The translations under genes and the position numbers were made by a program. 24,000 bases of DNA from an uncultured Actinomycetota bacterium (GTDB taxonomy: Bacteria; Actinomycetota; Actinomycetes; Frankiales; Frankiaceae), in contig CAVTTQ010000008.1 of NCBI GenBank assembly GCA_963737695.1, positions 23,941 through 47,940 on the forward strand, read 5' to 3'. The notes beneath the pieces were generated by a model, which saw only the letters and a program-made list of their open reading frames with translations, was not told where the DNA came from and did not search any database. Below are positions 298-16,708 of the stretch, piece after piece. Within the stretch, counting starts at the first letter, position 1; each line of letters begins with the position of its first letter.

Positions 298-3120
298 TCA
301 ATCGACCCGTTCGTCCAGTATGAGCATCCGGGCCAGCTCTACCCGCGATCGAATCCCCAGCTTCTGGAAGCTCTTTCCGAGATGGAATTCGACCGTCTTC
401 TCGCTGACGAACAGAGTTTCAGCCACTTCGCGGTTCGAAGACCCGGCCGCCACTGCGCTGGCCACCTGCAATTCGCGGGCGGTGAGGCTGGTCAGGGAGG
501 GTCGGTCGGCGGAGTCGGCGAGTTGCCCACCCGCTGCCCGGATCTCACGTTCGGTCTGCGCGATCCAACCTGACGCGCCCAGGCTGCTGAAAGCGCTCAG
601 GGCCGCGCGCAGCTGGCGAACTGATTCAGTCCGCCGCCGGGTCCGGCGCAGCCTTTCTCCGTAAGCGAGTTGTGTGCGGGCGCGCTCGAAAGGCCAATCC
701 CGGCCGATGGCGAGTGATGCTTCGAAGAGGTCGTCGGCGTCGCCCCCATCACCGTGGGCCGCTGCTAGCGCGAGGCAGCGTTTCAGCCGGATCTGATGGT
801 CGCTCGCAGAAATCAGATCATCGAGTGCGGCGCTCTCGAGAACCTCCTGCGCTTCATCGGAGTGCCCGCACCGGATAAGCGTCTCGGCGAACTCGAGGCT
901 CCAGATCGGCAGGCTCGTGTGCTGGGCCGCCTTTACGTCGTCATCGCGAGCCCGAAAGTGGGTCAGCGCCTGGCGGGGTTGGCCGCGCCCGAGCTCCAGC
1001 AAGCCAAGGGCCCAGCGGGCGTACTCACGCAGGGCTCGGTTGCCGGTGGCCACGCCGATGGCGATCGCTTCAGAGCCATGCGCGATGCAGTCGTCGCTCC
1101 TGCCCTGGGCCGCCTCAATGATGGCGAGATTGGCGAGACAGAAGTTGCGGGCTCCGCCGGTCTCGTCAGCGATGCGCAGCGCCTCGCTGGTCGTCGCGTA
1201 AGAACGCCACCAGCGGTCAGTCCGGAAATCGACCTCGCCGATGCTCGCCAAGGCCACCGGCAGTGCGCTGAGCGCGCCGGCGCTGCGGGCGACCGCGATG
1301 ACCGACTCGTACAGAGTTGTCGCCTCGGGCCAGCAGTCGTAAACGACCAGTCCGCGACCGTAAATCTCGGGGATCCAAGGGTTTTCGAGTGGATTGAGGG
1401 CTGAGAGAACGGGCAGCAGGTCGAGCAGTGACGATCGGATCGCCGCCTTGTGGTTGCCGAATATCTCGGTCGCCGACAGCACGACGCTGCGCACGGGCTC
1501 CGGCGCATGCGCGAAGAGCGGCCCGGATACGAGCTCTCGCCCGATCCGCAGGTCCTCCATGCTGCCCATGAGGACCGCTTCGGCCAGGGCAGCTCCACCT
1601 TGCACGGGGTCGGTGTCACCGATCAGATGAGCCGCTCGCACCGTCGTCTCCAACGCTCCGGGTGCGCCGGTCCAGAACGAAAGCCGACCCTCGATCTGCA
1701 TCGCTCGTGCGACGACCATCGGATCGTCGGCGCCTGACTGCGCCTGCCTTGCCAACGTGATGGCGTCTATGGCGCGGCCCGATTGCTGGGCGTCCAGAGC
1801 CGCCTCGAGGAACCTGACCGCGGCGCGCGCCGGCTCGGGGCTGAGTAGTGCAGCTGCCTCGAAGGCCTTGGCGGCCACGGCGGGCGCCTGCCGCGACCGA
1901 GCGGCATAAGCGAGCTCCTCGACCTCGGCGGCGACCGCTTCGACTGGGCCCGTAGAGGCGGCAACCAGGTGCCAGGCGCGGGCGTCATGTCGGTGGGCCT
2001 GGGTGGAGACGTCAGCCAGGATCTGATGGGCGGCGCGGCGGTCTGCGGCTGAGGCCTCGTGGTAGGCGGACGAGCGGACCAGCGGATGAATGAAGTGGCA
2101 TCGCCCCTCGCTGATCCTGATCAGATCCGCGTCCTCTGCAGGTTCGACGGCCGCAAGCGTGAGTCCGGCGGCGCCAAGGGCCGCTGAAAGGACAGCAACG
2201 TCGCTCGAGTCGCAGGCCGAGGCGATCACCAGGGCACGTCGCGTTGGCTCGGGGAGCGAGAGCAGCCTCCGGCCGTACGCTCCGGCGACTTGTCGACCAA
2301 CCGGAATGGGATCCGGGAGTGCGCGTAAGCCACTGCGTTGGTCGCCATCGAGCAGGCGGGCGGCCTCGATCAGGGCGAGGGGATTGCCCGCCGTTCTGGT
2401 GTGCAGCTCCAACGTGACCGCAGGAGACAGGGTTACGCCGGCGACATGCCCAAGCAGCGTGTCGACCTCGTCCAGCTCGATGCCTTCCAGGTCGAGGCGC
2501 TCGAGCCCATGCAGGTGCTCGAGCTTTTCGTCTCTGCTGGCGAGCACCATCAACACCCGCTCCGCCTCCAGCCGCCGGGCGAGGAAAAGCAATGCCTCGG
2601 CTGAGGCTGGATCGAGCCAGTGCACGTCGTCGATCAGGATCAGTAAGGGCCGGTATTCAGCCTCTGCCGAAATCAGGCTCAGGACGCCGACGTAGACCGA
2701 GAAGCGTTCCACAGCGGTGCCTTCGGTGAGGGCCAGCGCCGAGCGCAGCGAATCCTGCTGCGCCGTCGGCAGCTCGTCGATCCGGTGAATCAGCGGACGC
2801 AGCAGACCGACGAGCCCGGCGAAGGGCAGCCCCTGCTCGAATTCGGAGCCCGAGGTCCGAAGGACGCTGAAGCCGGAACTTCGCGCGCCGATCTCGGCCA
2901 GCAGCGAGGTCTTTCCCGACCCCGGCTCGCCCACCAAGGCCAGCACGCAGCTCCTGCCCTGCAGCGCTCGTTCGGCCAGCTCATCCAGCTGATCCAGCTC
3001 GTCGGATCGCCCGACTAGGCCCGCGCCGGCGGAAGCTCCCGTCGGGACAGGTGGCACCCGCCTTGCACCCACCCGTGCTCCGATCGGCCGACGCTGGAGC
3101 TGTCGATCATAGGCGTACAT
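298..3120 (-). CDS. LAL-family transcriptional regulator (N-terminal AAA/STAND-like ATPase, central helical/TPR-like region, C-terminal LuxR-type HTH)
   Basis: 940-aa ORF. Walker A is GEPGSGKT and Walker B-like is LLILIDDVHWLD. A long Ala/Leu-rich helical repeat region follows. The C-terminus LTARELQVASAVAAGSSNREVAETLFVSEKTVEFHLGKSFQKLGIRSRVELARM is a classic LuxR/GerE HTH. Start is uncertain: ATG 3120 has no SD, whereas GTG 3072 has GGAG 6 nt upstream. Confidence 0.9.
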   Translation of the reverse strand: MYAYDRQLQRRPIGARVGARRVPPVPTGASAGAGLVGRSDELDQLDELAERALQGRSCVLALVGEPGSGKTSLLAEIGARSSGFSVLRTSGSEFEQGLPFAGLVGLLRPLIHRIDELPTAQQDSLRSALALTEGTAVERFSVYVGVLSLISAEAEYRPLLILIDDVHWLDPASAEALLFLARRLEAERVLMVLASRDEKLEHLHGLERLDLEGIELDEVDTLLGHVAGVTLSPAVTLELHTRTAGNPLALIEAARLLDGDQRSGLRALPDPIPVGRQVAGAYGRRLLSLPEPTRRALVIASACDSSDVAVLSAALGAAGLTLAAVEPAEDADLIRISEGRCHFIHPLVRSSAYHEASAADRRAAHQILADVSTQAHRHDARAWHLVAASTGPVEAVAAEVEELAYAARSRQAPAVAAKAFEAAALLSPEPARAAVRFLEAALDAQQSGRAIDAITLARQAQSGADDPMVVARAMQIEGRLSFWTGAPGALETTVRAAHLIGDTDPVQGGAALAEAVLMGSMEDLRIGRELVSGPLFAHAPEPVRSVVLSATEIFGNHKAAIRSSLLDLLPVLSALNPLENPWIPEIYGRGLVVYDCWPEATTLYESVIAVARSAGALSALPVALASIGEVDFRTDRWWRSYATTSEALRIADETGGARNFCLANLAIIEAAQGRSDDCIAHGSEAIAIGVATGNRALREYARWALGLLELGRGQPRQALTHFRARDDDVKAAQHTSLPIWSLEFAETLIRCGHSDEAQEVLESAALDDLISASDHQIRLKRCLALAAAHGDGGDADDLFEASLAIGRDWPFERARTQLAYGERLRRTRRRTESVRQLRAALSAFSSLGASGWIAQTEREIRAAGGQLADSADRPSLTSLTARELQVASAVAAGSSNREVAETLFVSEKTVEFHLGKSFQKLGIRSRVELARMLILDERVD

Positions 3121-3272
3121 GAAGGAGAGATGTGAGCTGGCTGAATGTCGAAGCTAGGGATTCCCCTGATGCGGTCGACCTCGCCCAACTCCTAGCGTCC
3201 AAGTGCTGGGAGTGGCCGCTGCGCCGCTTCGCGGCCGTGCGCAGCTAGCGCGCCATCGTGCCTGGGGGAGCA
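3121..3272. promoter_or_regulatory. divergent intergenic region between the LAL regulator and the secreted-protein operon (presumed promoters/operator)
   Basis: 152-bp gap between oppositely oriented start codons. It contains a 6-bp inverted repeat, GGCCGC (3214-3219) and GCGGCC (3231-3236). No -10/-35 element could be assigned confidently by eye. Confidence 0.3.
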
Positions 3273-3917
3273 ATGAGGATCCACGTCGCTCGCAAAGAAT
3301 CAAAGTCCGTGTCTGGGCATGACCGTCGACCCCGTTCCGCCCTGCTGCTCCTGGCTGCCGCCGCGGCCATAGCTCCGATCGTCGCGGTGCCCGCGGCGAA
3401 CGCGGCCGACTCCGGGTCGAACACCTCGACCGTCGAGATCACCCCGGCTCTGGTCAGGTCGATCACCGTCAGCCCCGGCAACAGTTCCTTTGGCCGGTGT
3501 ATCGACACCGCCACACTGCAGAGTCTGACCACGCTCAATGTGCCCGGGGGTAGCTGTCGTTTGGGTACTCCGGCCGCAGAGGACTACGTCACTGTCACGA
3601 ACGGACCCGTCCCGGCTCGCGTTCTTGTGAACGGTGCTGAGGCGCGGCCGGCAACTGGTACAGGAGCGGGCTGGGTCTTGGGTCAGTCTCGCGACACCGA
3701 CCAGTTCACGGAAGAGAGCTACAACCGCGCAGCCTCTCCGGGCGGCGTGTTTGTCCTTCCGAACCCGGGGTGCGACGTCGCGTTCAACAATGCCCTCGAT
3801 TGCCAGGCCGACGCGAACGCCACGAGTGACGAGGGGCTGGAGGTGAGTGCCCCGACAAGCTCAACCGCGACAGCTTCGACGTTCACCATCACGACGACCT
3901 GGACGGCGGCTCCGTAG
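3273..3917 (+). CDS. secreted paralog 1 of an unnamed four-Cys, TTTWTAAP-terminated protein family
   Basis: ATG 3273 is preceded by GGGGGAG. The same RBS/start context (MRI..V) is seen in paralog 3; the track start GTG 3258 is 5 codons upstream. The signal peptide ends AANAA. The protein aligns over its full length with the next two ORFs and ends APTSSTATASTFTITTTWTAAP. Confidence 0.85.
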   Translation: MRIHVARKESKSVSGHDRRPRSALLLLAAAAAIAPIVAVPAANAADSGSNTSTVEITPALVRSITVSPGNSSFGRCIDTATLQSLTTLNVPGGSCRLGTPAAEDYVTVTNGPVPARVLVNGAEARPATGTGAGWVLGQSRDTDQFTEESYNRAASPGGVFVLPNPGCDVAFNNALDCQADANATSDEGLEVSAPTSSTATASTFTITTTWTAAP

Positions 3918-3920
3918 CCA

Positions 3921-4526
3921 GTGAAGATCGAATTGCGCCGACACCCTGTCGTTTTGCTCGTGGCTGCTATGGGGACCGTGTCGTTGCTCGCCATGCCTGC
4001 GGCCAACGCCGCTAGCAGTGGCACCAACACCTCGACGGTTGAGGTCACCCCCACCGAGGTTCGTTCGGTCACGGTGTCACCCGGCACGGGGACCTTCGCG
4101 ACGTGCCGGGATCCTGATGACCAGGTGACGATCGGCACGCTTACGATCCCCGGCGGTCATTGCTTCCTGGGTAGTCCGACTCAAGAGGAATTCGTGACCG
4201 TCACCAATGGTCCTGTCGCCGGCCGGATCTTGATCAACGGTGAGGCGGCGCGGCCTTCTGACGGCGGGACGCCCTGGGCGCTCGGCGCGTCGCCCGCGGC
4301 TGATGTTTTCACCGAGACGAGCCACAACACGGTGGACGGCGGCGACGACCAGTCACTGACCACGACACCTGTCTGCGACGTGACTTACTCACCCGATGTG
4401 GACGGCCTTTGCACCGCCAGCCCCAACGAGCCCAACGACGAATTCCTGCGGATCGATGCGCCGACAAGTTCCACGGATTCGTCGTCGACCTTCACCGTCA
4501 CGACCACGTGGACGGCCGCGCCGTGA
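3921..4526 (+). CDS. secreted paralog 2 of the same family
   Basis: GTG start lies 3 nt after the paralog 1 stop. The signal peptide is MKIELRRHPVVLLVAAMGTVSLLAMPAANAA. It has the same conserved motifs and four Cys, and ends APTSSTDSSSTFTVTTTWTAAP. Confidence 0.85.
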   Translation: MKIELRRHPVVLLVAAMGTVSLLAMPAANAASSGTNTSTVEVTPTEVRSVTVSPGTGTFATCRDPDDQVTIGTLTIPGGHCFLGSPTQEEFVTVTNGPVAGRILINGEAARPSDGGTPWALGASPAADVFTETSHNTVDGGDDQSLTTTPVCDVTYSPDVDGLCTASPNEPNDEFLRIDAPTSSTDSSSTFTVTTTWTAAP

Positions 4527-4539
4527 GGTCGGGGGAGTT

Positions 4540-5208
4540 ATGAGGATCAGCGTTGTTCACGATGAGGCGGTGCACGTCAGCGGTCATGCACGCAGAACTC
4601 GTCGACTGCTGCTGGCCGCAGCCGCCGCGGCGCTGGCCTCGTTGGCCATCGCGACAAGCGCCAGCGCGGCGGACAGCGGTGCCAACACATCGACCGTCAA
4701 CATCTCGCCGCCTCTGATTCGCTCGATCACGCTGGCGCTCAGCGTCGACGTGCCGGGGGGCTCGTTCGGTCTCTGTGTCGACCCGGAGACTCACCTTGCT
4801 GACTTGACCACACTCACCATTCCCGATGGCATCTGCACCCTCAGCCGTGGGGGTGGTGGCCAGGATTACGTCCGCATCACGAACGGGCCGGTTCCAGGTC
4901 ACATCAATGTCAACGGCGGGGAGGCGGTGCCCACGTCAGGCGAAGGAAGCGGTTGGGCGCTTGGCACCAGCGCGGGACCGGACGTCTATACGGAAAAGTC
5001 CGCGGACCACGACGGCGAGGCGCTCCTGCCCTTCTCCCTTACCGCTTCACCCTCGTGTGATGGCTCCATCCACCCCGCGGTTGCCGACCTGTGCGCGGTC
5101 GCCGCCGATGAGGAGAACGATGAGCTCGTCCAAATCGGAGCGCCCACCAGTTCAACCGCGACGGCCTCGAACCTCACCGTCACCACGACCTGGACCGCCG
5201 TCCCGTAA
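4540..5208 (+). CDS. secreted paralog 3 of the same family
   Basis: The track ORF 4396-5208 overlaps paralog 2. The real start is ATG 4540 (GGGGGAG-tt-ATG), 13 nt after the paralog 2 stop, giving MRISVVHDEAVHVSGHARRTRRLLLAAAAAALASLAIATSASA. It ends APTSSTATASNLTVTTTWTAVP. Confidence 0.85.
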   Translation: MRISVVHDEAVHVSGHARRTRRLLLAAAAAALASLAIATSASAADSGANTSTVNISPPLIRSITLALSVDVPGGSFGLCVDPETHLADLTTLTIPDGICTLSRGGGGQDYVRITNGPVPGHINVNGGEAVPTSGEGSGWALGTSAGPDVYTEKSADHDGEALLPFSLTASPSCDGSIHPAVADLCAVAADEENDELVQIGAPTSSTATASNLTVTTTWTAVP

Positions 5209-5837
5209 TGGCAGCCCGCTCTTCACTCCGCTCGGTCGCAGTAGTCCTTGGCCTGACCCTCCTGGCGGCGATCGTGACGCCGGCGGCGGCCGCTCACGCC
5301 GCTGCCGGCGTCGGGGTCGGGGCGGCGCCGATTGAGGCGAAAGGCGAGCTGACCGCGGCCTCTTCGGTGGTGTTGCCGTCCCTGTACGTGGTGAACACCG
5401 GCACCGAGCCATCCACGTACGGAATTCGGGTTCAGCGGATCGGGAAAACCAGCGGGACGCCCGTGCCGACATCGTGGGTGACCGTCACTCCCGCCACCCT
5501 CGCGCTCAAGCCGAAGGCCGGCAGGTGGGTGAAAGTGTCCTTGCAGATCCCGGCTGGAGCTGCCAGCGGTTCCTACACGAGCAATCTCGTCGCCGGCACC
5601 GTCGCCGGCGGACAGGCCACCGGGACCAAGGCCCAGTTCGGCGCCCAGGCTGCGACCCAGCTGTCCTTCAAGGTCGGCGCTCCAGGGTCGGCAGCCGCGG
5701 TTGAATCCAAGCCCGATACGTCATCGAACGGTGGGGATCTCGGACCCTGGTGGGCCTGGGTGGGTGGCTTGGCTCTAGTCGTCGCTGTGATCGCGATCTG
5801 GAAGAGCGGGATCAGGGTGAAGGTCACGCGAAGCTGA
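5208..5837 (+). CDS. signal-peptide protein with one Ig-like/beta-sandwich-type domain and a C-terminal TM anchor (DUF916/chaperone-like by architecture only)
   Basis: TAATG overlap with the paralog 3 stop indicates translational coupling. The signal peptide ends AAAHAAA. The beta-rich core is LPSLYVVNTGTEPSTYGIRVQRI...VTVTPATLALKPKAGRWVKVSLQIPAGAASGSYTSNLVAG. The C-terminal anchor is PWWAWVGGLALVVAVIAIW followed by KSGIRVKVTRS. Confidence 0.8.
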   Translation: MAARSSLRSVAVVLGLTLLAAIVTPAAAAHAAAGVGVGAAPIEAKGELTAASSVVLPSLYVVNTGTEPSTYGIRVQRIGKTSGTPVPTSWVTVTPATLALKPKAGRWVKVSLQIPAGAASGSYTSNLVAGTVAGGQATGTKAQFGAQAATQLSFKVGAPGSAAAVESKPDTSSNGGDLGPWWAWVGGLALVVAVIAIWKSGIRVKVTRS

Positions 5838-5840
5838 ACG

Positions 5841-6872
5841 TCACAGGCGGCTCGCGAGTCTGGTGAGTACGTCCCGTGCGGGTCCGGCGGTCGCCGTTCG
5901 GTATCCGGTGCCGGCCCAAAGATTGATGCGCTGCGAGTCGTTTGCTGCCGCCGCGGCTTGTCGTAGTGGCCGGGTCAGGTGGTGCAGCGCGGGGTAACCG
6001 GCAGGCGCCAGTTGGTCGTACCGCTCGGTGAACAGGTTCGGAACTGCCCGTGCCGGCCTGCCCGTAAAGGCTCTGGTGACGACGGTGTCGCGGTCCGCTG
6101 GGTCGGTGAGCGCGGACTTGTACGCCGCTGATGCGCCGGACTCCTCGGTGCGAAGCAGTGCGGTCCCCACCATGACGGCATCGGCCCCTGCCCGGAGCGT
6201 GGCTGCGACCTGGTCAGCGGTGGACAGTCCGCCAGCCGCGATGAGCGGTAATGAAACGGTCTGGCGAACGCCTCGGACGAGATCGGGGAGGGCGGTCGTG
6301 CTTCGAGGCTGGTCCGGTGTGAGCGTGCCGGAATGACCGCCGGCGCTTGAAGCCTGGACCGCCAGCAGATCCACCCCGGCATCCGCGGCATGTATTGCTT
6401 CTTGGGGTGAGGTGACCGTTTGTACGACAAGGGTCCCGACGCGCTGGAGCGCACGGATGATCCGCGGTTCGGGTATCGCGAACGTGAAGCTGACAACCGG
6501 CACCGGATCGTCAAGGAGCAGAGCTACTTTGTTGTCCCAGTCGTCGTCATCTTCTACCGGCTGATCACCGGCCAGAGTGATCTCGTAGACGTCGGCTTCG
6601 GGTTGGATCTCGCGGGCGTAGCGGCGAAAAGCATCCCGGTCGACCGGCTGCGGGCTGGGCGCAAAAAGGTTGACCCCGAAGTGGGGAGTCAGAGCTCTTG
6701 CTGCGGCGATCTGCGCCGCGAGAGCATCCACGCTGCGATAACCGCCCGGCAGGAAGCCGAGTCCGCCGGCCTCGCCCGCGGCCGCGATCAATCCCGGGGT
6801 AGTAGGGCCGCCGGCCATCGGTGCGGCGAACACCGGCATAGTCACTCCGAGGCCGGTAAGCCAGCCGGTCAT
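5841..6872 (-). CDS. nitronate monooxygenase (NMO / 2-nitropropane dioxygenase family, FMN-dependent)
   Basis: MTGWLTGLGVTMPVFAAPMAGGPTTPGLIAAAGEAGGLGFLPGGY plus GGHSG and AAGG motifs are typical of NMO. The track ORF extends to 7154, but that extension is Arg/Ser-rich and overlaps the divergent gene. ATG 6872 gives a canonical 343-aa NMO. Confidence 0.85.
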   Translation of the reverse strand: MTGWLTGLGVTMPVFAAPMAGGPTTPGLIAAAGEAGGLGFLPGGYRSVDALAAQIAAARALTPHFGVNLFAPSPQPVDRDAFRRYAREIQPEADVYEITLAGDQPVEDDDDWDNKVALLLDDPVPVVSFTFAIPEPRIIRALQRVGTLVVQTVTSPQEAIHAADAGVDLLAVQASSAGGHSGTLTPDQPRSTTALPDLVRGVRQTVSLPLIAAGGLSTADQVAATLRAGADAVMVGTALLRTEESGASAAYKSALTDPADRDTVVTRAFTGRPARAVPNLFTERYDQLAPAGYPALHHLTRPLRQAAAAANDSQRINLWAGTGYRTATAGPARDVLTRLASRL

Positions 6873-6978
6873 GATGCTGCTGGGAGTTGCCCCGGCAATG
6901 CCAGCACCCGCCACATAGAAATCAAGGGTAGTCGGCGCTTTGCAAAGTCCGGGAGTGACTTGGAGTGGGGGAGATGGG

Positions 6979-7206
6979 ATGCCCGTCAAACAACGTTGGA
7001 ACGATCTGAGCCCGCGCGTCCGGCGGCTGATCGCTATCGCAGCCGCTCTCGAGGGCGCCCTCAAACTTGCTGCGCTCATTGACATCAGACGTCGACCCGC
7101 TGCAGCGATCAGAGGCCGGAAAGCGGTGTGGGCGCTGACGGTGAGCGCCGTCAACAGCTTCGGTCTTGCGCCGCTGGCCTACTTCCGTTTCGGTCGGCGG
7201 CGGTAG
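6979..7206 (+). CDS. small membrane protein, PLDc_N (phospholipase-D-nuclease N-terminal)-like
   Basis: ATG 6979 is preceded by GGGGAG. The 75-aa product has two hydrophobic helices and the C-terminal pattern W.L....N.FG.APLAYF.FGRRR typical of PLDc_N small proteins. It is divergent from NMO across a 106-bp gap. Confidence 0.6.
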   Translation: MPVKQRWNDLSPRVRRLIAIAAALEGALKLAALIDIRRRPAAAIRGRKAVWALTVSAVNSFGLAPLAYFRFGRRR

Positions 7207-7214
7207 GGCGCGAC

Positions 7215-7817
7215 TCAGACTTTGCCGTGCAATTCCTCGGCGATCTGCTTGCCTTGGGCGGGGGTTACGTAGGTGAAGCCGCCGATCTTGACGTAGGTGT
7301 CACCGAACAATGCGCCGTAGCTGGCGAATGCGCTCGCTCCGACTGAGCCTGCGTTTCCCTTGGGGTCAGGGGTCGAGAACGCTTCATCGCCCACGCCGGA
7401 CACCGAGTCGGGCGCGTGACTGACCGTCTTCAGCGCCTCGACGTCGGCGTCGTAGCCAATCTTTCCGCCATGGGTGGTCACGGAGATCTGGAGGAGGGTC
7501 CCGAGAGCACCGGTGTAATCGCAGCTGAAAATGACGCCCTCTACGTCGCCCGGCTTAACCGCGGTAAAGGTGGTGCCGGTGATCTGCGAGGCTGCTGCTG
7601 CCGGAAGCGCGGTGCACACGTCGAATGCCTTCTTATTGCCAGTAGAAGTTCCAGTGCTCGAGCCACCGCCCGGCACGGCAGAAAGCACCGCCTCTGGTTT
7701 TGTCGTACCACTGCTCGATCCGCCCGAGGCCGTCTTGGATCCACTCGAACACGCAGCAGTGGTGATGGCGACAAGCGCTAGTGAGACAACTACGGCCGAC
7801 GCCGTGGGAATTCGCAT
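7215..7817 (-). CDS. secreted lipoprotein (DUF3558-like by composition), function unknown
   Basis: ATG 7817 is preceded by AAGGAG. MRIPTASAVVVSLALVAITTAAC carries a lipobox, followed by a Ser/Gly/Thr linker and a two-Cys globular domain. The track start 7916 is an upstream extension. Confidence 0.75.
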   Translation of the reverse strand: MRIPTASAVVVSLALVAITTAACSSGSKTASGGSSSGTTKPEAVLSAVPGGGSSTGTSTGNKKAFDVCTALPAAAASQITGTTFTAVKPGDVEGVIFSCDYTGALGTLLQISVTTHGGKIGYDADVEALKTVSHAPDSVSGVGDEAFSTPDPKGNAGSVGASAFASYGALFGDTYVKIGGFTYVTPAQGKQIAEELHGKV

Positions 7818-8083
7818 TAATGCTCCTTGAGATTGAGAAGCGGCCCGTACCTGCCGCTTTGCCGATAATGCGCGGAGTCGATCTGAAAGTGAGAGCAAGT
7901 GTCGATGAGCCGACAATTACCTGTCACCCGCCTGTCTTCGGCGCCAGTTGTTTTGCCATTGCGCACATTTCATGTGCATCACATATAAGACGAACACCTT
8001 GTACGAACGATCGTCCGGTCTCAAAGATCCGCCGCCGGGATCGAAGATTCAGCGCCACATCCCGTCAGCTGGCTCCTGAATCC

Positions 8084-8626: not shown

Positions 8627-8639
8627 TGTTCTGGTTCAG

Positions 8640-8703
8640 GACATCGGAATGGGGTGTCTCACGACATCGGAATAGCGTGTCGCAGGTCTTCGGAATGGCT
8701 GCC
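8640..8703 (+). repeat. subterminal direct repeats inside the left IS end (about 23-nt period, CGGAAT core)
   Basis: GACATCGGAATGGGGTGTC (8640-8658), GACATCGGAATAGCGTGTC (8663-8681) and a degenerate third copy GGTCTTCGGAATGGCTGCC (8685-8703). The right end carries TTGGAAT once. These are plausible transposase-binding sites. Confidence 0.5.
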
Positions 8704-8720
8704 GGTCGGCAGGCTGGCGG

Positions 8721-9903
8721 ATGTCGAAGCGTCGCCTGGTCATCACTGCCGTACTGGCCGGCCAGTCCCAATCCGAGGTGGCCCGTACCTACGGCGTCTC
8801 GCAGGGCTGGATCAGCAAGCTCATGGCCCGTCATCGGGCCGAGGGTGAGGCCGCGTTCGAGCCGCGCTCACGTGCTCCTGCGTCCAGCCCGGCAGCGACC
8901 CCGGCTCAGACCGTCGACCTGGTGCTGCGGCTGCGTAAGCAGCTGCGTGAGTCCGGTCTGGATGCCGGCGCCGACACCATCGGCTGGCACCTGGCCCACC
9001 ACCACGCCACCGTCCTGTCGCGGGCCACGATCAACCGGATCCTCGTCCGGGCCGGTGCCGTCACACCCGCCCCGTCAAAACGTCCCAAGTCCTCCTACAT
9101 CCGGTTCGAAGCCGACCAGCCCAACGAGACCTGGCAGTCCGACTTCACCCACTACCCGCTCACAGGCGGCACCGACTGCGAGATCCTGAGCTGGCTGGAC
9201 GACTGCTCCCGTTACGCGCTTTCGGTCACCGCCCACGCCCGGGTCACCGGCCCGGTCGTACTCGCCACCTTCCGCAAAACCATTGCCACCTATGGCGTTC
9301 CAGCCTCCACGCTGACCGACAACGGGATGGTGTTCACCACCCGCTTCGCCGGCGGCCGCGGCGGCCGCAACCACCTCGAACACGAACTACACAAGCTCAA
9401 CATCACCCAGAAAAACGGCCACCCCAACCATCCACAAACCCAAGGCAAGGTCGAACGGTTCCAGCAGACGCTGAAAAAATGGCTGCGCGCCCAACCCGAA
9501 CAGCCCACCACCATCACCCAGCTGCAAACCCTCCTCGACCGGTTCGCCGGCGACTACAACCAGCGCCGCCCCCACCGATCCCTGCCGCACCACGCACCCG
9601 GCCACCATCTACCAGTCACTGCCCAAAGCCACCCCCAGCAGCAACCGCAGCGCCGACACCCACGACCGCACCCGCCGCGACAAGATCGACAAAGCCGGCA
9701 GCGTCACCCTCCGGGTCGCCGGCCAACTCCGCCACATCGGCGTCGGCCGAACCTACGCCCGAACCGACGTCATCCTGCTCGTCCAAGACCTCCACGTCAC
9801 CGTCATCAACGCCGCCACCGGCGAGATCCTGCGCGACCTCACCATCGACCCACGACGCGACTACCAACCCACCGGCCGACCACCCGGACCCACCAAAAAA
9901 TAG
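8721..9903 (+). pseudogene. IS481-family transposase, interrupted by one +1 frame change near 9597
   Basis: The N-terminal HTH (LAGQSQSEVARTYGVSQGWISKLMARH) and the integrase core (WQSDFTHY...DNGMVFT...HPQTQGKVERFQQTLKKWL...YNQRRPHRSL) lie in the frame of 8721. The canonical C-terminus, TIYQSLPKATPSSNRSADTHDRTRRDKIDKAGSVTLRVAGQLRHIGVGRTYARTDVILLVQDLHVTVINAATGEILRDLTIDPRRDYQPTGRPPGPTKK-stop (TAG 9901-9903), lies in the next frame. Deleting one C from CCC 9597-9599 restores ...PHHAPATIYQ.... The 424-aa track ORF (to 9995) is the out-of-frame Pro/Arg-rich read-through. Confidence 0.85.
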
Positions 9904-9931
9904 GCCGAACCTGCAGATCGCAGGTCCGGCC
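9903..9931 (+). terminator. stem-loop overlapping the transposase stop codon, inside the right IS end
   Basis: GGCCGAACCTGC (9903-9914) pairs with GCAGGTCCGGCC (9920-9931): 12 bp with one mismatch and a 5-nt loop. There is no U tract. Confidence 0.3.
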
Positions 9932-9956
9932 TATTCCAATGTCCCGAGACATCACA

Positions 9957-9972
9957 TTTGTCGGGATGACAG
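9957..9972. repeat. right copy of the 16-bp target-site duplication TTTGTCGGGATGACAG (overlaps the tRNA 3' end)
   Basis: Identical to 8611-8626 and contiguous with the tRNA body. Confidence 0.85.
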
Positions 9973-10034
9973 GATTTGAACCTGCGACCCCCTGACCCCC
10001 AGTCAGGTGCGCTACCAAGCTGCGCCACATCCCG
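9961..10034 (-). tRNA. tRNA-Pro (anticodon GGG), 74 nt, no encoded CCA
   Basis: The reverse complement is CGGGATG TG GCGC AGCTTGGTA GCGC A CCTGA CTGGGGG TCAGG GGGTC GCAGG TTCAAAT CCTGT CATCCCG A. It has a perfect 7-bp acceptor stem, a 4-bp D stem, a 5-bp anticodon stem with loop C-U-GGG-G-G, and a T arm with TTCAAAT. Confidence 0.92.
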
Positions 10035-10093: not shown

Positions 10094-12145
10094 TTAGCCG
10101 GCACGACCTCCGGTAGCTCCGGTCCGGGCAAATCCGCCGCCCCCGGTCCGTCCGGTGCCGCCGGTGAGTCCGCCGCCCAGCCCGCCTCCGAGACCGCCGC
10201 CGCGGCCGGTCAGAGAGGTCGACCCGCTGGTCGGTAGTGGGGTGCTGAGGTTCGCCAGCGCTACGTGATCGCCGGCTTTGAGCCCCGACGTGACTTGCGT
10301 GAGCGTGGCGTCGGAAGCTCCTACGACGACGATCTTCCGCTGGGCTTTGCCTCCGGACAGCACGGTGACGGTGTGCAGGGCTCCGAAGGTCGTGACGGCT
10401 GACGTCGGCACCGTCACGACTCCCGAGACGCTCTTGACGAGGATTGAGACGTTGGCGCCCGATCCCGAGTAGAGACCGCTGCTATCGAGGCTGATCGTGA
10501 CGGGGTAGGTGGCGGAGTTGGTTGCCGAACTCGCGGTCGACGAGCTGCTCGAGCTTGCGGTCGACGCAGCGCTGGAGGAGGCACCGGAGCGTCCCGACCC
10601 AGTGGTGCCCGTCGACCCGGTGGTCGTGGTCGATACGGGCAGGAGCCCGATTGCGGTGACCGTCCCGTGAAGGGGTTTTGTGGTGCCGTCAGGGGTGACG
10701 ATCGCGGTGGCTCCGACGTGGACCTTCTCCAGATCCAGATCTCCCACAGTGGTCGTCACCTCATCGACGCCGGGACCGATCACAGTTACCGCGGTCGACT
10801 GGGCACTTGCCGAAGACCCCGGCGTGATGCTGACCTGAGCAACGGTGCCTGCCAGCGGGCTGACGAGCGTTGTCTGGTTGACCGACTCTGCGGCGACGAA
10901 CACCGCTGCGGTGTCGGCGTCGACCGTTGCCTGATCAAGAGCGAGCATGTCGGCAGTAACCAGCGTCCCGCCGCCGGATCCTCCACCCGAGCCGCTGCTG
11001 GTACGAGAAGATCCGCTGGAACTAAAGGACGATGAGCCGCTGGAACCGGTTGTTGAGGCTCCGCCGCGTGAATGGTCGCTGGATCCACCGGTGCTGGGGC
11101 TCGCGGAGGGTGTGGGGGTCGGCGTGGGAGTAGGCGTGGAGGACGATGACTCTGCTGCCGCAGTAAGTTGCGCAACAGCGTTCGTCAGCGTGGTCTCGTC
11201 GGCGCTCACCGCCTTCTGAGCGGTGGATACGGACTGTTGATCGGCCAGGATCTTGGTCAGCAACGCCGTGCATGCGCTGGGATCGGGGGCGGGCGTTCCG
11301 CCTCCAGCGCCAGGTGTCGCAGGTGTGGCGGTCGCTCCCGCCGCAGGCGTGGTCGGCGTGGCCGCCGGCTTGAAATTCTGGAGTGAGGAAATAAGCGAAC
11401 CGCACGTGCTGGTGCCGCTGTTCAGGTCGGCAGTCACGGTGGCGAGCAGGTTGTCGACCGTTTGCTGATCGGTGAGCAGCTTTGCCTGCGCGGCCGTGAC
11501 GGCAGCCTTCGCCGCGGCGATGGCGCCGGAATCACCGGACCCGCCTGCCGCGCCGCCGCCGCCCCCGGAGCGGCCTCCGGTGAGCGGCACCGCCGCCCCG
11601 ACGTCGGCCGGCCCGAGGGAGCTGGACGACGAACCACTACCACTGGAATTGCTGGAAACGGTGGTGCCGTCGGCCTGCGCCTGGGTGTCAGAAGCCAGCT
11701 TCGCCTGCGCAGTAGCAAGCGTCGATTGCGCGGAATCCAGCTGGGACTGCAGGCTGGTCTTGTCGATGGTGGCAAGGGTCTGACCGACCTTGACCTTTTC
11801 GCCGACCGTCACCGGCACCGTCGCGACCGTCCCGCTCACCGGGAAGGCCACCGCCGCCTGATTGATCGGCTGGACCGTGCCGTAGGAGTTGAGCGTTTGG
11901 TCGACGTCACCCATCTTGACCGTCGCCGAACGGTAGCTCGCCGCGCTCGAGCCGCTGGCCGCCCAGATCCCGCCGGCGGCAACCAGGATGAGGACTGCGA
12001 CCACGACGATCACGGTCAGTCTTCGCGGTCGCCGGCCGAGTCGTTTCGGCTTCCCGGCCACCGGTTCAGCAGCCGCGGATGCCGCCGGCTCGGGCTCCTC
12101 GGAGGGCTCTCGGAGCAGGAAGGTCAGCTCCGTCTGGTCTGTCAT
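10094..12145 (-). CDS. HlyD/MFP-type periplasmic adaptor subunit no. 2, with giant low-complexity insertions and a Gly-rich C-terminal tail
   Basis: 683 aa, with an N-terminal TM (LTVIVVVAVLILVAAGGIWAA). Lipoyl-like motifs are VAFPVSGTVATVPVTVGEKVKVGQTLATID and LVSPLAGTVAQVSI, and there are coiled-coil segments. The start ATG overlaps the upstream stop (ATGA at 12142-12145). Confidence 0.85.
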   Translation of the reverse strand: MTDQTELTFLLREPSEEPEPAASAAAEPVAGKPKRLGRRPRRLTVIVVVAVLILVAAGGIWAASGSSAASYRSATVKMGDVDQTLNSYGTVQPINQAAVAFPVSGTVATVPVTVGEKVKVGQTLATIDKTSLQSQLDSAQSTLATAQAKLASDTQAQADGTTVSSNSSGSGSSSSSLGPADVGAAVPLTGGRSGGGGGAAGGSGDSGAIAAAKAAVTAAQAKLLTDQQTVDNLLATVTADLNSGTSTCGSLISSLQNFKPAATPTTPAAGATATPATPGAGGGTPAPDPSACTALLTKILADQQSVSTAQKAVSADETTLTNAVAQLTAAAESSSSTPTPTPTPTPSASPSTGGSSDHSRGGASTTGSSGSSSFSSSGSSRTSSGSGGGSGGGTLVTADMLALDQATVDADTAAVFVAAESVNQTTLVSPLAGTVAQVSITPGSSASAQSTAVTVIGPGVDEVTTTVGDLDLEKVHVGATAIVTPDGTTKPLHGTVTAIGLLPVSTTTTGSTGTTGSGRSGASSSAASTASSSSSSTASSATNSATYPVTISLDSSGLYSGSGANVSILVKSVSGVVTVPTSAVTTFGALHTVTVLSGGKAQRKIVVVGASDATLTQVTSGLKAGDHVALANLSTPLPTSGSTSLTGRGGGLGGGLGGGLTGGTGRTGGGGFARTGATGGRAG

Positions 12146-13140
12146 CCGGCGCCGCCCGAAGCACCCGCGCCCTGACGGAATCTGCCGAAGCCCCCGCCGA
12201 AGCCGAGTTGCGTGCAGCCACTCGAGGTCGGTGTGCTCAACGCGATCGTGCGAGCCGTGACCGCCCCGGTGTCATCTGTGGTTCCGATGGCCGTCGCGCA
12301 GAGGCCGACCTTCAGGTCAGCCTTGGTCGCGGTGGCTTCCTCGCGGAATGTGGTGCTGGGCGTCGTGGTGACGGTGACCGTCGAGGTCTTACCGGCTCGA
12401 GTGCTCTTCACCTCGAACGTTCCGCTGCCAACCGAGGCCACCGTGCCGAATGCCGCACGTCCAAAGCCCGCGCCGCCGCGTCCGGCGCCGAAGCTCGGCG
12501 ATCCACTCGGGCGGACCCGCCCGGACGGACGGCCGGAGGGGAACGCGCCGCCCGGCCCGCGTCCGGTGGTGGCGACAGTGCACGTACCAGAGGTCTTCGT
12601 GATGATCACCGAAGTTGCGGTGAGGGCGGTGACCGGCGACGGGGAGGCGGATGGCGTGGTGCTCGGAGTGGTGGACGCTGCCGCGGTGGCAGTGACGCAG
12701 TCGCCCGGCTTCAGCGCTGCCGCAGTCGTGGTCAGTGTCTGGCTGAACGTCGTCGTGCCGGTGTAGTTGACGGTGGTTTGGCTGGAGGTCCCTTGCACGA
12801 AGATGTTGCTGGGATTGACCTGCGAGATCTTTCCGGTCGTGCCCGGCCTGGCCCCGCCACCGGCGGCGCCTCCTGCCGAGCCACCCGCTGAGCCACCGGC
12901 GCTGGCGCCGCCGTTCTGCGGTGTCGCAGCGGAGGATTTCGTCGAAGAGCTGCTGCTGCCGCAGGCGGCAGCCAGCACGACGACACCAAGGGCGACGGCG
13001 GGCACTTGCAGCCAGCGGCGGCGGGCATGCAAGTCGACTGACCGGGACGTCGGGATGTTCACCGTCGAACTCGCTTTCGTGACATGAGCAGATGAATCGC
13101 ACACGGATGTGGGCGGACGAAACACGGCGGGCAACCTCAT
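12142..13140 (-). CDS. lipoprotein with two DUF5666-like beta domains and a Gly-rich tail
   Basis: The lipobox is VVLAAACGSSSS. The repeated module is GKISQVNPSNIFVQG...TTFSQT...LKPGDCVTATA and GTVASVGSGTFEVKS...TTFREE...LKVGLCATAIG. Start is uncertain. ATG 13140 overlaps the permease stop (ATGA), but the first ~35 codons show weak coding periodicity. GTG 13062 or TTG 13032 would give a normal-length signal peptide. Confidence 0.75.
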   Translation of the reverse strand: MRLPAVFRPPTSVCDSSAHVTKASSTVNIPTSRSVDLHARRRWLQVPAVALGVVVLAAACGSSSSSTKSSAATPQNGGASAGGSAGGSAGGAAGGGARPGTTGKISQVNPSNIFVQGTSSQTTVNYTGTTTFSQTLTTTAAALKPGDCVTATAAASTTPSTTPSASPSPVTALTATSVIITKTSGTCTVATTGRGPGGAFPSGRPSGRVRPSGSPSFGAGRGGAGFGRAAFGTVASVGSGTFEVKSTRAGKTSTVTVTTTPSTTFREEATATKADLKVGLCATAIGTTDDTGAVTARTIALSTPTSSGCTQLGFGGGFGRFRQGAGASGGAG

Positions 13141-14369
13141 TCGGAGCGCAGGGCGTCGATGGGGGCGAGCCGGGCCGCGCGGCTTGCGGGATATACGCCG
13201 AAGATGACGCCGATAGCGACGGCGACGGCGATGGCGCCGACCGCGGCCAATCCGGAAATCGTGATCGGCTGGTTGACAACGGAGGGCAGTACGGCGGCGC
13301 CGATAACGCCGAGCACGACACCAAGTAGGCCACCGGCAAGTCCTAGTACCGATGACTCCACCAGGAACTGACGACGGATCACGCGCGGAGGAGCGCCGAG
13401 AGCCTTGCGCAGGCCGATCTCCTTGATGCGCTCGGTCACCGAGACCAACATGATGTTCATGACGCCGATCCCGCCCACCAGCAGCGAGATCCCGGCGATT
13501 CCGCCGAGCAGGATGGTCAGCGTCTTGTCGACCGAAGTAGCGGTCGTGAGGATCGACTGCTGGCTGGAGATGGAGAAGTCGGCGGCCGTCGCGGTCGTGA
13601 TGGCGTGCGTCGCGAGCAGCTCGGAGTTCGCCTCCTGGTAGGCCGCGGAGAGGGTGTGACGGGAGGCCGCTTCGATGTAGATCGTCGAAACCGACGAGCG
13701 TGAGGTGCCGCCGATGAGCCGGGTCTGCGCCGTCGTGATCGGAACGATCGCGGTGTCGTCCTCATCGGTCGCACTCGAGGAGCCCACGGTGGTCAGCTCA
13801 CCGATGACCTGCATCGGGATGTTGTTGATGGTGACCGTTTGACCGACCGGGTTTGCGCGGCCGAAGAGTTCGGTGGCCGTCTCCGAGCCGAGCACGACCA
13901 CGGAGGCAAGGCTGTCGACATCGTGGCTGTTGATGAACCGGCCCGACGACAGTTGCCGGGCGCGGACCGAGAGCCAATCCGGCTGCGTGCCGACGACGGA
14001 GGTCGTCCAGTTCGAGGTTCCGGCAGTCAGTGACTGAGACGTGGAGACGGTGGGAGCGACCGCCTTGATGTCCGGGGCGACAGTCTTGTTCGACAACGCG
14101 TCCGCATCGCGAACGGTCAGCGTCGAGGCCGATCCGAAGCCGCCCCGAACTCCTGTGCTGCTGGTGGAGCTGCCCGGAGAGACGATGAGCAGGTTGCTGC
14201 CCAGGGCTGCGATCTCACCGCGCACCTTGTTCTGCGCACCTTCGCCGAGCCCCACCGTCAGGATCACGGCGGCGATCCCGATCAGGATCCCGAGCATCGT
14301 CAGGCCGGACCGCAGCCGGTGCGTGCGCACTGCCTCCAGGCCCGTTCGAAGGGTCTCCCACCAGCTCAC
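13137..14369 (-). CDS. ABC transporter permease, MacB/FtsX type (periplasmic MacB_PCD domain plus C-terminal FtsX 3-TM bundle)
   Basis: 410 aa. N-terminal TM is LRSGLTMLGILIGIAAVILTV, followed by a large extracytoplasmic domain and a C-terminal ERIKEIGLRKALGA motif with three TM helices. The GTG start overlaps the ATPase stop (GTGA). Confidence 0.9.
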   Translation of the reverse strand: MSWWETLRTGLEAVRTHRLRSGLTMLGILIGIAAVILTVGLGEGAQNKVRGEIAALGSNLLIVSPGSSTSSTGVRGGFGSASTLTVRDADALSNKTVAPDIKAVAPTVSTSQSLTAGTSNWTTSVVGTQPDWLSVRARQLSSGRFINSHDVDSLASVVVLGSETATELFGRANPVGQTVTINNIPMQVIGELTTVGSSSATDEDDTAIVPITTAQTRLIGGTSRSSVSTIYIEAASRHTLSAAYQEANSELLATHAITTATAADFSISSQQSILTTATSVDKTLTILLGGIAGISLLVGGIGVMNIMLVSVTERIKEIGLRKALGAPPRVIRRQFLVESSVLGLAGGLLGVVLGVIGAAVLPSVVNQPITISGLAAVGAIAVAVAIGVIFGVYPASRAARLAPIDALRSE

Positions 14370-15127
14370 TGAGCGGCTCCGAGGGCGCCTGGCGCATCCG
14401 CAGAGTTGTTGGCGTCCGGAACCAAGCCACCGTCATGGATTCGCGCGATCCGCCCAGCGCGGCGGGCGACGTCGCCCTCGTGCGTGATCAGGACGATGGT
14501 GCGTCCCGCTTCGTGCAACTCGTCGAGCAACCCGAGCACGTCGTCCGTCGAAACCGAGTCCAGGTTGCCGGTGGGCTCGTCGGCGAGAATCAACGCGGGG
14601 TCGGTCACCAAGGCCCTGGCGACAGCGACTCGCTGCTGCTGGCCGCCGGACAGCTCCGCCGGACGGTGTTCGACGCGGTCCGAGAGCCCGACGCGTTCCA
14701 GCGCCGCCATGGCCCGCGCCTTACGCTCGGGGCGGGAGACTCCGGCGTAGCAAAGCGGCAGTTCGACATTGCGCCACGCGTTAAGCGAAGGCAGCAAGTT
14801 GAACTGCTGGAAGACAAAGCCGATTCGCCGGTTACGGATGTCGGCCAACTCGTCTTCGGACAGCCGGCTCACGTCCTCGCCCGCCAGCAGGTACCGGCCC
14901 TCAGTCGGTACATCGAGACAACCCAAGATGTGCATCAGGGTTGATTTGCCGGAGCCGGACGGACCCATGACCGCCACGTAGTCACCGGTGGAGATCGAAA
15001 GGTCAATTCCTCGCAAGGCTTCGACCGACAGCGTGCCGTTGGTATAGGTCTTGCGAACACCCTCGAGAGCGATGACAGGCAACGGGCCCTCGTGAGTCTG
15101 CGGTGTCTCCGGCGAAAGCGTGGTCAT
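14366..15127 (-). CDS. ABC transporter ATP-binding protein (MacB/LolD-like)
   Basis: Walker [11 protein letters not shown]-loop, signature [15 protein letters not shown], Walker [12 protein letters not shown], and H-loop ITHE. The ATG overlaps the adaptor 1 stop (ATGA). Confidence 0.95.
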
Positions 15128-16461: not shown

Positions 16462-16708
16462 TCCCACGTCTCCCAACACCGCCCGGCCGCGCAGGCGCTC
16501 GGCGTGACTTGACCCGCTTCCGACGATCGCGGCTGACTTGAAGATCGAGTCCTGACATGCGGGTTCCCTCCTAGCACGCTGGGAGTCAGCTGTGAGGTTG
16601 TGTTTCGAGAAGCAATCAATCTTTTTCACATGTTCTGGCGGCAAAACCGCAGCTCGGCCCTACAACAAGAGACGGCCTGAGGTGCGTTGCAACACGCTCG
16701 AAAGCGGA

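Follow-up and report, generated by a model that had tools for sequence, protein, structure and literature searches.

We find that four tightly packed genes in a 24,000-nucleotide (nt) stretch of DNA from an uncultured Actinomycetota bacterium of the family Frankiaceae (assembly GCA_963737695.1, contig CAVTTQ010000008.1, positions 23,941 to 47,940; this whole stretch is hereafter called the window) form a module that recurs in distant bacterial lineages. Three of the genes encode paralogous secreted proteins (S1, S2 and S3, members of what we call the S family), and the fourth encodes a protein with a single immunoglobulin (Ig)-like domain and a C-terminal transmembrane helix (the anchor). On balance, we think that S proteins and anchor make up a conserved cell-surface module that works by analogy with the WxL clusters of Bacillota, in the non-covalent display or assembly of proteins. 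The observations behind this are the gene structure of the operon, the paralogy of the S proteins and their export signals, the topology of the anchor as read from its sequence, the co-occurrence and fusion of S and anchor, the C-terminal position of the S domain in larger proteins and an all-beta structure model.

In the mechanism that we propose, the three S proteins would be exported via N-terminal signal peptides with an A-x-A cleavage site. Each would fold into a beta-rich domain of ~170 amino acids (aa), probably disulfide-stabilized, with a last strand that ends the protein (...TWTAAP). The anchor would be a type-I membrane protein, with its Ig-like ectodomain outside, one transmembrane helix, and a short conserved basic tail inside. 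It would retain or organize the S proteins at the membrane/wall interface by non-covalent contact, most plausibly by beta-strand augmentation of the kind that WxL-interacting proteins (WxLIPs) provide to WxL domains. Elsewhere, larger secreted proteins (beta-propellers) would dock through the S domain at their C terminus, and the S-only paralogs of the window may be scaffold, basal or filler subunits of the display complex. A divergent LuxR regulator with an AAA ATPase domain would switch the operon on. The physical contact between S proteins and anchor, their surface location, the regulatory link and any ligand are inferences.

The operon and the S and anchor families

As read from the sequence, the operon consists of four open reading frames (ORFs) on the + strand, which lie beside a divergent regulator gene:

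298..3120, - strand: LuxR-family regulator, 940 aa, with AAA_16 ATPase, TPR and GerE helix-turn-helix (HTH)
3121..3272, no strand: divergent intergenic region of 152 nt between regulator and S1, with a Shine-Dalgarno sequence, GGGGGAG, at 3262-3268
3273..3917, + strand: S1, secreted S-family paralog of 214 aa; alternative upstream GTG start at 3258
3921..4526, + strand: S2, secreted S-family paralog of 201 aa; GTG start
4540..5208, + strand: S3, secreted S-family paralog of 222 aa; ATG start
5208..5837, + strand: anchor, 209 aa, with signal peptide, Ig-like ectodomain, C-terminal transmembrane helix and basic tail

The first-pass annotation of this DNA had described the genes as tightly packed, the first two intervals being 3 nt and 13 nt and the last two genes overlapping at TAATG, and this proved exact when the sequence was read again. 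The TAG stop of S1 (3915-3917) is followed after 3 nt by the GTG of S2, and the TGA stop of S2 (4524-4526) after 13 nt by the ATG of S3; the latter gap carries a GGGGGAG Shine-Dalgarno sequence 5 nt upstream of that ATG. The TAA of S3 (5206-5208) overlaps the ATG of the anchor gene (5208-5210) to give TAATG at 5206-5210, through which the anchor is translationally coupled to S3. Where the annotation had the operon span 3121-5837, the four genes begin at 3273 and 3121-3272 is noncoding. This divergent intergenic region presumably holds the promoters of both the regulator and S1. No sigma-70 consensus promoter was found in it, which is expected given the high-GC organism, and a search there for regulator-binding repeats gave only short, unconvincing inverted repeats. 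We took ATG 3273 as the start of S1 because GGGGGAG precedes it and the product matches the 214-aa database protein P0004, with which S1 is identical. For S2 we took GTG 3921 because a complete signal peptide results; the database call for S2, P0001, begins later and would truncate that peptide. S3 is the database representative P0029.

S1, S2 and S3 share 47-54% pairwise identity, four invariant Cys and an identical C terminus, TTTWTA(A/V)P (TTTWTAAP in S1). The disulfides predicted for S2 are C62-C81 and C152-C164. The S-family profile hidden Markov model (HMM) matches them at E values of 1.4e-52, 1.3e-56 and 1.7e-47, respectively, and because these lie at 1e-47 to 1e-56 their paralogy is far beyond chance. 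The earlier description of three paralogous secreted subunits therefore holds, given the identities, the signal peptides and the shared C terminus. The signal peptide of S1 ends ...PAANA, and the chain continues with ADSGSNTSTVEITP. S2 is 67% identical to P0002, of locus L001. Although a word-indexed homolog search found only eight S relatives, an exhaustive profile HMM search of 1.84 billion cluster representatives (clusters at 50% identity) found 369 at E<=1e-3, of which 305 reach E<=1e-10.

The family has a median length of ~220 aa. Nearly all members listed end in ...(D)xSxxF-T-T-x-(V/I)-T-W-T-A-V-P, at or a few residues from the C terminus, and the profile match runs to the last residues in nearly all of 150 listed representatives. 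Near-invariant positions, in S2 numbering, are S49, T51, L74, P77, G79, C81, N96, W119 and L121, followed by G126, C152, D153, C164, E174, P181, T196 and W197. The first ~20 mature residues are among the best conserved of the family. Wherever S is part of a longer protein, it forms the C-terminal domain: P0083 joins a YNCE/SGL-type beta-propeller to a C-terminal S domain, P0088 does so with a Vgb_lyase-type beta-propeller, and P0033 is called as a tandem S-S protein.

S1-S3 match no Pfam or NCBIfam family, and scans of nine S members and of 130, taken individually, recognized none. The sole Pfam/NCBIfam matches are noise (PsbQ, and choice_anch_T on the signal peptide). Searches of PDB sequences with S profiles of 9 and of 130 sequences gave no significant match, only PPL3 lectin (E 0.44) and Tri1, an alanine-run artifact. 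The S and anchor families are thus covered by neither Pfam nor NCBIfam, and no search, by HMM or by structure, assigned the proteins to unrelated, independently acting families.

The signal peptides of the S proteins carry an invariant Arg-Arg pair in their N-regions (S1 3273-3400, S2 3921-4010, S3 4540-4670), and these N-regions are long in S1 and S3, with ~20 residues ahead of the hydrophobic core. We considered twin-arginine (Tat) export of S1-S3 and did not adopt it: the residues after the Arg-Arg pair fit S/T-R-R-x-F-L-K poorly, and P0006 lacks the pair. Export may run through either Sec or Tat. A lipobox-like motif stands ahead of the S domain in six S members.

The anchor of the window has a signal peptide ending ...AAAHA, followed by AAGVGVG, a conserved domain (LPSLYVVNTGT...VP.SW...L.VP..A..G.Y.) and a hydrophobic stretch, WWAWVGGLALVVAVIAIW, followed by KSGIRVKVTRS. 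Its family HMM matches it at E 1.4e-65. The 20 relatives found, of ~190-210 aa, all have one layout: signal peptide; G-V-G-V-G-A-x-P-I-x-L; LPSLYVVNTGT...Y.V.V; VP.SW; L.VP..A..G.Y.S..VAG; G.AAT.L.F.V; transmembrane helix. Invariant are G34, G36, P41, LPSLYVVNTG, P87, W90, G121 and Y123. Sequence and family alignment thus agree with the earlier reading of a 209-aa product with a signal peptide, one beta-sandwich-like domain, a C-terminal transmembrane helix and a basic tail.

A conserved P-W-W starts the helix, and the conserved tail RRSGxRxxVERR follows it. In the cytoplasmic tail of the window anchor (5760-5837), we observed the family motif (R/K)-(R/K)-S-G-x-R-x-x-(V/I)-E-R-(R/K), with G201 and R208 nearly invariant. 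Together with the P-W-W ahead of the helix, this motif suggests that the tail may be more than a basic stop-transfer signal and may make an intracellular or interfacial contact.

In Pfam, the anchor family has Ig-like matches below threshold only: NPCBM_assoc in 14 of 20 members (at best 4.7e-4, over the 'L.VP..A..G.Y' hairpin), FixG_C and Ig_VWA7. Against 177,635 PDB sequences, the top match of the anchor profile was EfmWxLIP1 (9i25_C, 9i1y_A) at E 0.001, with 21.8 bits summed over both Ig domains. EfmWxLIP1 is a DUF916/DUF3324 WxL-interacting protein of Enterococcus faecium, deposited in 9i25 with a chain named 'WxL domain surface protein'.

Linkage of S and anchor genes across genomes

We ran the S and anchor profile HMMs on six-frame ORFs of every locus fetched, and used gene tables and translations alongside. 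An S gene adjoins an anchor gene in all nine independent loci with readable flanks, and both gene orders were seen. Two of the loci come from metagenome-assembled genomes (MAGs) named below:

Window: three S and anchor
L001: two LuxR regulators, three S and anchor
L002: two S and anchor
L003/L004: anchor and S, overlapping
L005: LuxR, S and anchor
L006 (Acidimicrobiaceae MAG): GerE regulator, two S and anchor; one S and the anchor frameshifted, an IS21 element adjacent
L007 (Candidatus Dormiibacterota MAG): LuxR, a 597-aa secreted protein, S and anchor
L011/L012: anchor and S
L013: anchor and S

At one further locus, for which we had a gene table only, a 202-aa gene overlaps the S gene by 8 nt, as in L011. 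An anchor is missing from L010 alone; this locus encodes a small S protein, an Ig-like secreted protein of 168 aa and a large propeller-S protein, and its contig ends just after the last gene. The first-pass annotation had proposed conservation of the gene neighborhood as a check, and the co-occurrence of the paralog set with the anchored protein in all readable loci indicates that the four genes behave as one module. It had also called the system actinobacterial, a label too narrow for the S/anchor family, because relatives lie in the Acidimicrobiaceae MAG and in the Dormibacterota MAG.

Three of these loci hold further features. The 168-aa Ig-like protein of L010 (1752-2258), between the small S gene and the large propeller-S gene, lacks a transmembrane helix. 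The 597-aa secreted protein of L007 (4147-5940), between the LuxR regulator and S, has no known domain. At 5250-7156 of L006, beside an IS21-type transposase pair, two frames are needed to read one of the two S genes, and likewise the anchor gene; this reflects either indel errors of long reads or a copy of the module in decay.

S and anchor also occur in one called ORF. P0135, P0136 and P0162 (423-436 aa), each a representative of a 50%-identity cluster, have the anchor domain, transmembrane helix, tail, a second hydrophobic segment and an S domain in one ORF. The second hydrophobic segment would bring the chain back outside, so that the anchor and S domains would both be extracellular. The three may be genuine fusions, or else overlapping genes that gene calling read through as one. 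In P0135 the second hydrophobic segment is lipobox-like (LAAC).

The linkage bears directly on whether the proteins act together at all. They could instead be co-regulated but independent, the S proteins being free secreted factors (for example carbohydrate-binding lectins or inhibitors) and the membrane protein a separate sensor, receptor or immunity-like partner by which they are not retained at the surface. The S proteins have no recognizable cell-wall-binding domain, the conserved cytoplasmic tail of the anchor could signal, and there are faint matches to lectin-like or carbohydrate-related proteins: PPL3 at E 0.44, a Beta-prism lectin match in 1 of 130 members, and the GH123/Nga domains in the Foldseek comparison below. 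All of these lectin-type matches are, however, non-significant. Moreover, adjacency is strict across distant lineages and in both orders, with translational coupling or overlap, three representatives join anchor and S in one ORF, and S serves as a C-terminal module on unrelated N-terminal domains. Because of this S-anchor linkage, we regard independent action as quite improbable.

The window regulator matches AAA_16 (3.8e-22), GerE (1.6e-18) and TPR_12 in Pfam. Its ortholog in L001 is 61% identical and has the same divergent position beside three S and anchor, and LuxR/GerE regulators also stand beside S/anchor genes in L005, L006, L007 and the P0018 locus. The AAA_16-TPR-GerE protein is, by its domains and position, the probable transcriptional regulator of the operon.

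Fold of the S domain and surroundings of the operon

An AlphaFold2 model of S2 built on a 130-sequence alignment is all-beta, with ten strands, a predicted local distance difference test score (pLDDT) of 88.1 and a predicted template modeling score (pTM) of 0.75. It replaces a run with a 9-sequence alignment that was unusable (pLDDT 44). Both W119-L121 and 195-200 lie within strands, and the N-terminal segment is confidently placed in the monomer model (pLDDT 87-95). Foldseek comparison of the model with the PDB returned nothing at E<=1e-3. Its top match was CsuA/B (6fq0_B; E 2.4e-3, probability 1.00, TM-score 0.34 query-normalized and 0.48 target-normalized). Further weak matches were the donor-strand-complemented subunits FimG, CfaB, Caf1, PapE and SafA, the TasA fiber (8aur_A; E 0.026, TM-score 0.36) and the N-terminal sandwich domains of GH123/Nga glycosidases.

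As the best fold matches of the S2 model are donor-strand-complemented subunits and the TasA fiber, the S proteins might themselves be subunits of a pilus-like or TasA-like filament, with the N-terminal strand (SGxNTSTVxVTP) of each inserted into its neighbor and the anchor as base, primer or chaperone. Like chaperone-usher pilins and TasA, they are small secreted beta-sandwich subunits that come as sets of paralogs, several to an operon, with a well-conserved N-terminal segment (the first ~20 mature residues). The large propeller-S proteins would then be tip adhesins, as is FimH (lectin domain plus pilin domain), and they do resemble pilin tip adhesins in that a functional domain precedes the C-terminal subunit domain. 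We nevertheless consider a fiber unlikely. No fold match reaches E 1e-3, and the query-normalized TM-scores of the matches are only 0.27-0.36; the N-terminal segment is not left free in the monomer model; in many loci the anchor gene has just one S gene for a neighbor; and the anchor-S fusions are more easily reconciled with docking in a 1:1 pair than with a polymer.

The assembly machinery differs as well. Pilins and TasA occur with an usher, periplasmic chaperone, SipW or TapA, whereas none of these was found among the ORFs scanned around the S genes, and the partner of S is a membrane-anchored single Ig domain. None of the S members scanned matches Pfam Fimbrial or Peptidase_M73/TasA (the camelysin type), and no signal peptidase gene lies nearby. 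In agreement with the first-pass annotation, our scan of neighboring window ORFs found no sortase, LPXTG protein, usher (PF00577), PapD-like chaperone (PF00345) or SipW-type peptidase, and no usher or PapD-like chaperone was recorded among genes beside S/anchor in related loci. Sortase-dependent display likewise finds no counterpart in the window: the S proteins end TWTA(A/V)P without a hydrophobic tail, the anchor has no LPXTG before its transmembrane helix, and the ORFs scanned include no sortase.

Downstream of the operon, a nitronate-monooxygenase-like ORF (5841-7154, - strand) converges on the anchor gene. Only 3 nt separate the two stops, too few to fit a terminator between the genes. 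The ORF has 437 aa when read from the first TTG, and because its Pfam NMO match begins at residue 103, the real start is probably well downstream. Beyond it lies a DUF3558-like lipoprotein gene (7215-7916, - strand), with a sub-threshold match (E 7e-5) and a lipobox, TTAAC before S. An operon link to downstream lipoproteins was rejected; the DUF3558-like protein of the window is unrelated to the lipoprotein encoded after the L001 anchor gene.

Farther along, an IS481-like transposase ORF (8721-9995, + strand; HTH_28/HTH_32 and rve) has a long Pro/Arg/His-rich tail after the integrase core, and this tail runs into a tRNA-Pro(GGG) gene (9960-10034, - strand). A 23-nt tandem repeat of 2.8 copies (8636-8699) lies just upstream of the ORF, and 9001-10000 shows strong strand asymmetry (GC skew -0.32, AT skew +0.30). 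The stretch 8636-10034 looks like a mobile element inserted beside the tRNA gene, and the tail of the ORF is probably noncoding. Within 10094-16644 (- strand) lies a MacB-type ATP-binding cassette (ABC) exporter, with a MacB_PCD/FtsX permease (13137-14369) and an ABC ATPase (14366-15127). On either side of it lies an HlyD-like adaptor gene (10094-12145 and 15124-16644), and a further flanking ORF of 332 aa (12142-13140) matches no family. Such a pair of adaptors around a single exporter is unusual for a single-membrane high-GC organism.

Comparison with WxL clusters and other known systems

The WxL/Csc clusters of Bacillota encode small and large WxL proteins plus a WxLIP, which consists of DUF916, DUF3324 and a transmembrane helix (Siezen 2006, PMC1534035; Hassan & Williamson, PMC9772566, PMC10599100). 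The WxL domain is C-terminal and has two W-x-L motifs on adjacent strands, 68-106 residues apart (PMC9772566); small WxL proteins are this domain alone (PMC9772566, PMC10599100). The two Trp-motif strands are adjacent and antiparallel and form a buried platform beneath the N-terminal strand. Further conserved features are an Asp at W1-8, an Arg at W1-6 and a GTxAG turn before motif 1 (PMC9772566). A hairpin strand of the WxLIP completes the WxL sandwich (PMC9772566, PMC10599100), and WxLIPs have a conserved N-terminal motif, NQIDKxxxYFDLK (PMC10599100). A WxL cluster is defined as at least one WxLIP plus two WxL within four genes (PMC10599100), and more than 91% of members of the system are in Firmicutes (PMC9772566, PMC10599100). 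In composition, the window and L001 have three S and one anchor and L002 and L006 have two S and one anchor; several loci have one S, and the components fail WxL profiles.

We compared the S and anchor families with six Bacillota WxL loci fetched from plasmid records. With hhalign, only the last 28 columns of the S profile align to 11 WxL proteins (P 0.008), and 71 columns of the first Ig domain align between the anchor and six DUF916 proteins (P 0.011). Both local scores exceed all 60 of 60 column shuffles, which are too lenient a control. Across 1,505 ORFs, the S HMM ranks WxL ORFs 1, 2, 4, 7, 12 and 14, with no enrichment of DUF916 ORFs, and the anchor HMM ranks DUF916 ORFs 7, 8, 13 and 22; reverse searches gave a similar picture. 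These rank tests restate one weak family-to-family similarity. The S HMM aligns near full-length and colinearly with a Bacillus cereus WxL protein, at a score that is not significant: ATVEITP stands opposite STVEVTP in the N-terminal strand, GDGWTL opposite GtpWtL at motif 1, and ELTWTLS opposite tvTWtAv at the terminal motif. This colinear alignment is, at the level of sequence, the most suggestive single result for a likeness to WxL.

Several results weigh against the comparison. Pfam WxL, DUF916 and DUF3324 are unmatched in 130 S and 20 anchor members: for WxL (PF13731) nothing appeared at E<=1 in the 130 S members or at E<=10 in nine members, and the 20 anchor members have no Pfam match to DUF916 (PF06030) or DUF3324 (PF11797). 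HMMs built here fare no better, the WxL HMM scoring S ORFs only at E 2.5-9 and the DUF916 HMM scoring the window anchor at E 2.9. The S profile fails to detect the solved WxL chain 9i25_A, and the WxL structure 9i25 is absent among the 50 Foldseek matches listed, of which the best, though weak, are pilins. Cross-family hhalign controls are as good as the matched pairs (anchor against WxL, P 0.011; S against anchor, P 0.0035). Because these controls score equally, the S-WxL and anchor-DUF916 matches are no proof, and the shared 'strand-P-loop-aromatic-strand' hairpin may be generic to beta-sandwiches. Members of the same family are not independent, so the P values of the rank tests are inflated. 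At ~190-210 aa, the anchor has room for one Ig-like domain only, as opposed to the DUF916 plus DUF3324 of a WxLIP, and it lacks NQIDKxxxYFDLK; its mature N terminus is G-V-G-V-G-A-x-P-I-x-L, with no YFDL motif. The second S motif is W-T-A, whereas in WxL it is W-x-L.

How far, then, does the likeness go? The S domain may be a true, divergent WxL domain and the anchor a one-domain relative of DUF916, which would make the module an ancient sister of the WxL system and not a convergent look-alike. Three motifs are colinear. Motif 1 is near-invariant (W119-x-L121), as is the Trp of motif 2 (W197), whose Leu is replaced to give T-W-T-A in most members, and the W1-W2 spacing of 78 residues in S2 falls within the 68-106 of WxL domains (PMC9772566). 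The HMM similarity, weak but reciprocal, is confined to the matched pairs, the top PDB match of the anchor is a WxLIP, and the gene order is identical. Opposed to this, the sequence statistics are all below significance or equal to controls, the Asp at W1-8, the Arg at W1-6 and the motif-2 Leu are absent, as are DUF3324 and NQIDK...YFDLK, and the solved WxL chain is not among the Foldseek matches listed. We find homology plausible, but would stop short of calling it probable.

The analogy with WxL/Csc clusters drawn in the first-pass annotation is supported by the EfmWxLIP1 match of the anchor, the same gene order, the C-terminal S domain and the colinear motifs, while homology is unproven. 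That the S/anchor module 'works like' a WxL cluster is accordingly, as an analogy, the best-supported mechanism; that it is a 'member of' the system is unproven. More tentatively still, and as a somewhat less probable proposal than homology alone, S and the single-Ig anchor, which occur in Actinomycetota-type soil genomes as well as in the two MAGs, could be an unnamed, phylum-spanning, non-covalent display system, an ancient sister of WxL/WxLIP. In such a system, a disulfide-bonded S sandwich of ~170 aa with T-W-T-A-V-P at its end would be completed by a strand of the anchor, and S would be a portable C-terminal 'address tag' by which enzymes such as beta-propellers dock on the cell surface.

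Sortase-free surface attachment is poorly known in high-GC soil bacteria and in candidate phyla such as Dormibacterota. In the literature library searched, no paper describes a WxL-like system beyond Bacillota, in line with the first-pass annotation, which knew of no such system characterized in a high-GC setting. The S/anchor signature is clean and testable: an S gene beside an anchor gene, often with a LuxR regulator that has an AAA ATPase domain. If S is a docking tag, a set of 'hypothetical' secreted proteins, including the propeller fusions, could be annotated as surface-displayed, actinobacterial biotechnology would gain a small non-covalent display tag, and the WxL paradigm, with its strand complementation, would extend well beyond Bacillota. 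If the module is indeed a sister system, WxL-type display would be a general device of single-membrane bacteria and not a specialty of Lactobacillales/Bacillales. Should S instead form fibers, these would be a new class of filament, independent of sortase and usher.

Among other known systems, the sub-threshold NPCBM_assoc matches in 14 of 20 anchors liken the anchor to Ig-like domains of the CARDB, NEW3 (NPCBM_assoc) and FixG_C type. Those domains differ in being modules of enzymes or oxidoreductases and not stand-alone, transmembrane-anchored partners of secreted paralogs, and all of the anchor matches are below Pfam gathering scores.

The S/anchor module differs from Bacillota WxL clusters in several ways beyond those weighed above. 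Ahead of W1 the S family has the consensus A-x-P-x-D-G-G-T-x-W, in which the Asp falls at W-5 and no Arg is conserved; the Bacillota alignment shows D-x-R-G...G-W there. Four Cys are conserved in S, and its N-terminal strand is not followed by a proline-rich linker. The anchor tail RRSGxRxxVERR is conserved, and a gene for an LPXTG partner is missing. Where WxL loci have HTH/LytTR regulators, the module has a large LuxR protein with an AAA ATPase domain, and the hosts are high-GC soil lineages (Acidimicrobiaceae MAG, Dormibacterota MAG) and not Lactobacillales/Bacillales. The likenesses are nonetheless many. S proteins, too, are rich in beta strands, carry a W-x-L motif and have a Trp in their final strand, which lies at the very C terminus, and in larger proteins the S domain follows N-terminal functional domains, as in 'large WxL' proteins (PMC9772566). 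The anchor has a signal peptide, a C-terminal transmembrane helix and a basic tail, as do Bacillota DUF916 proteins, and anchoring would be non-covalent, with no sortase needed. The Enterococcus raffinosus and B. cereus loci read [adhesin]-[LPXTG]-WxL-WxL-WxL-[DUF916 anchor], so that three small paralogs precede the anchor in the same order as in the window.

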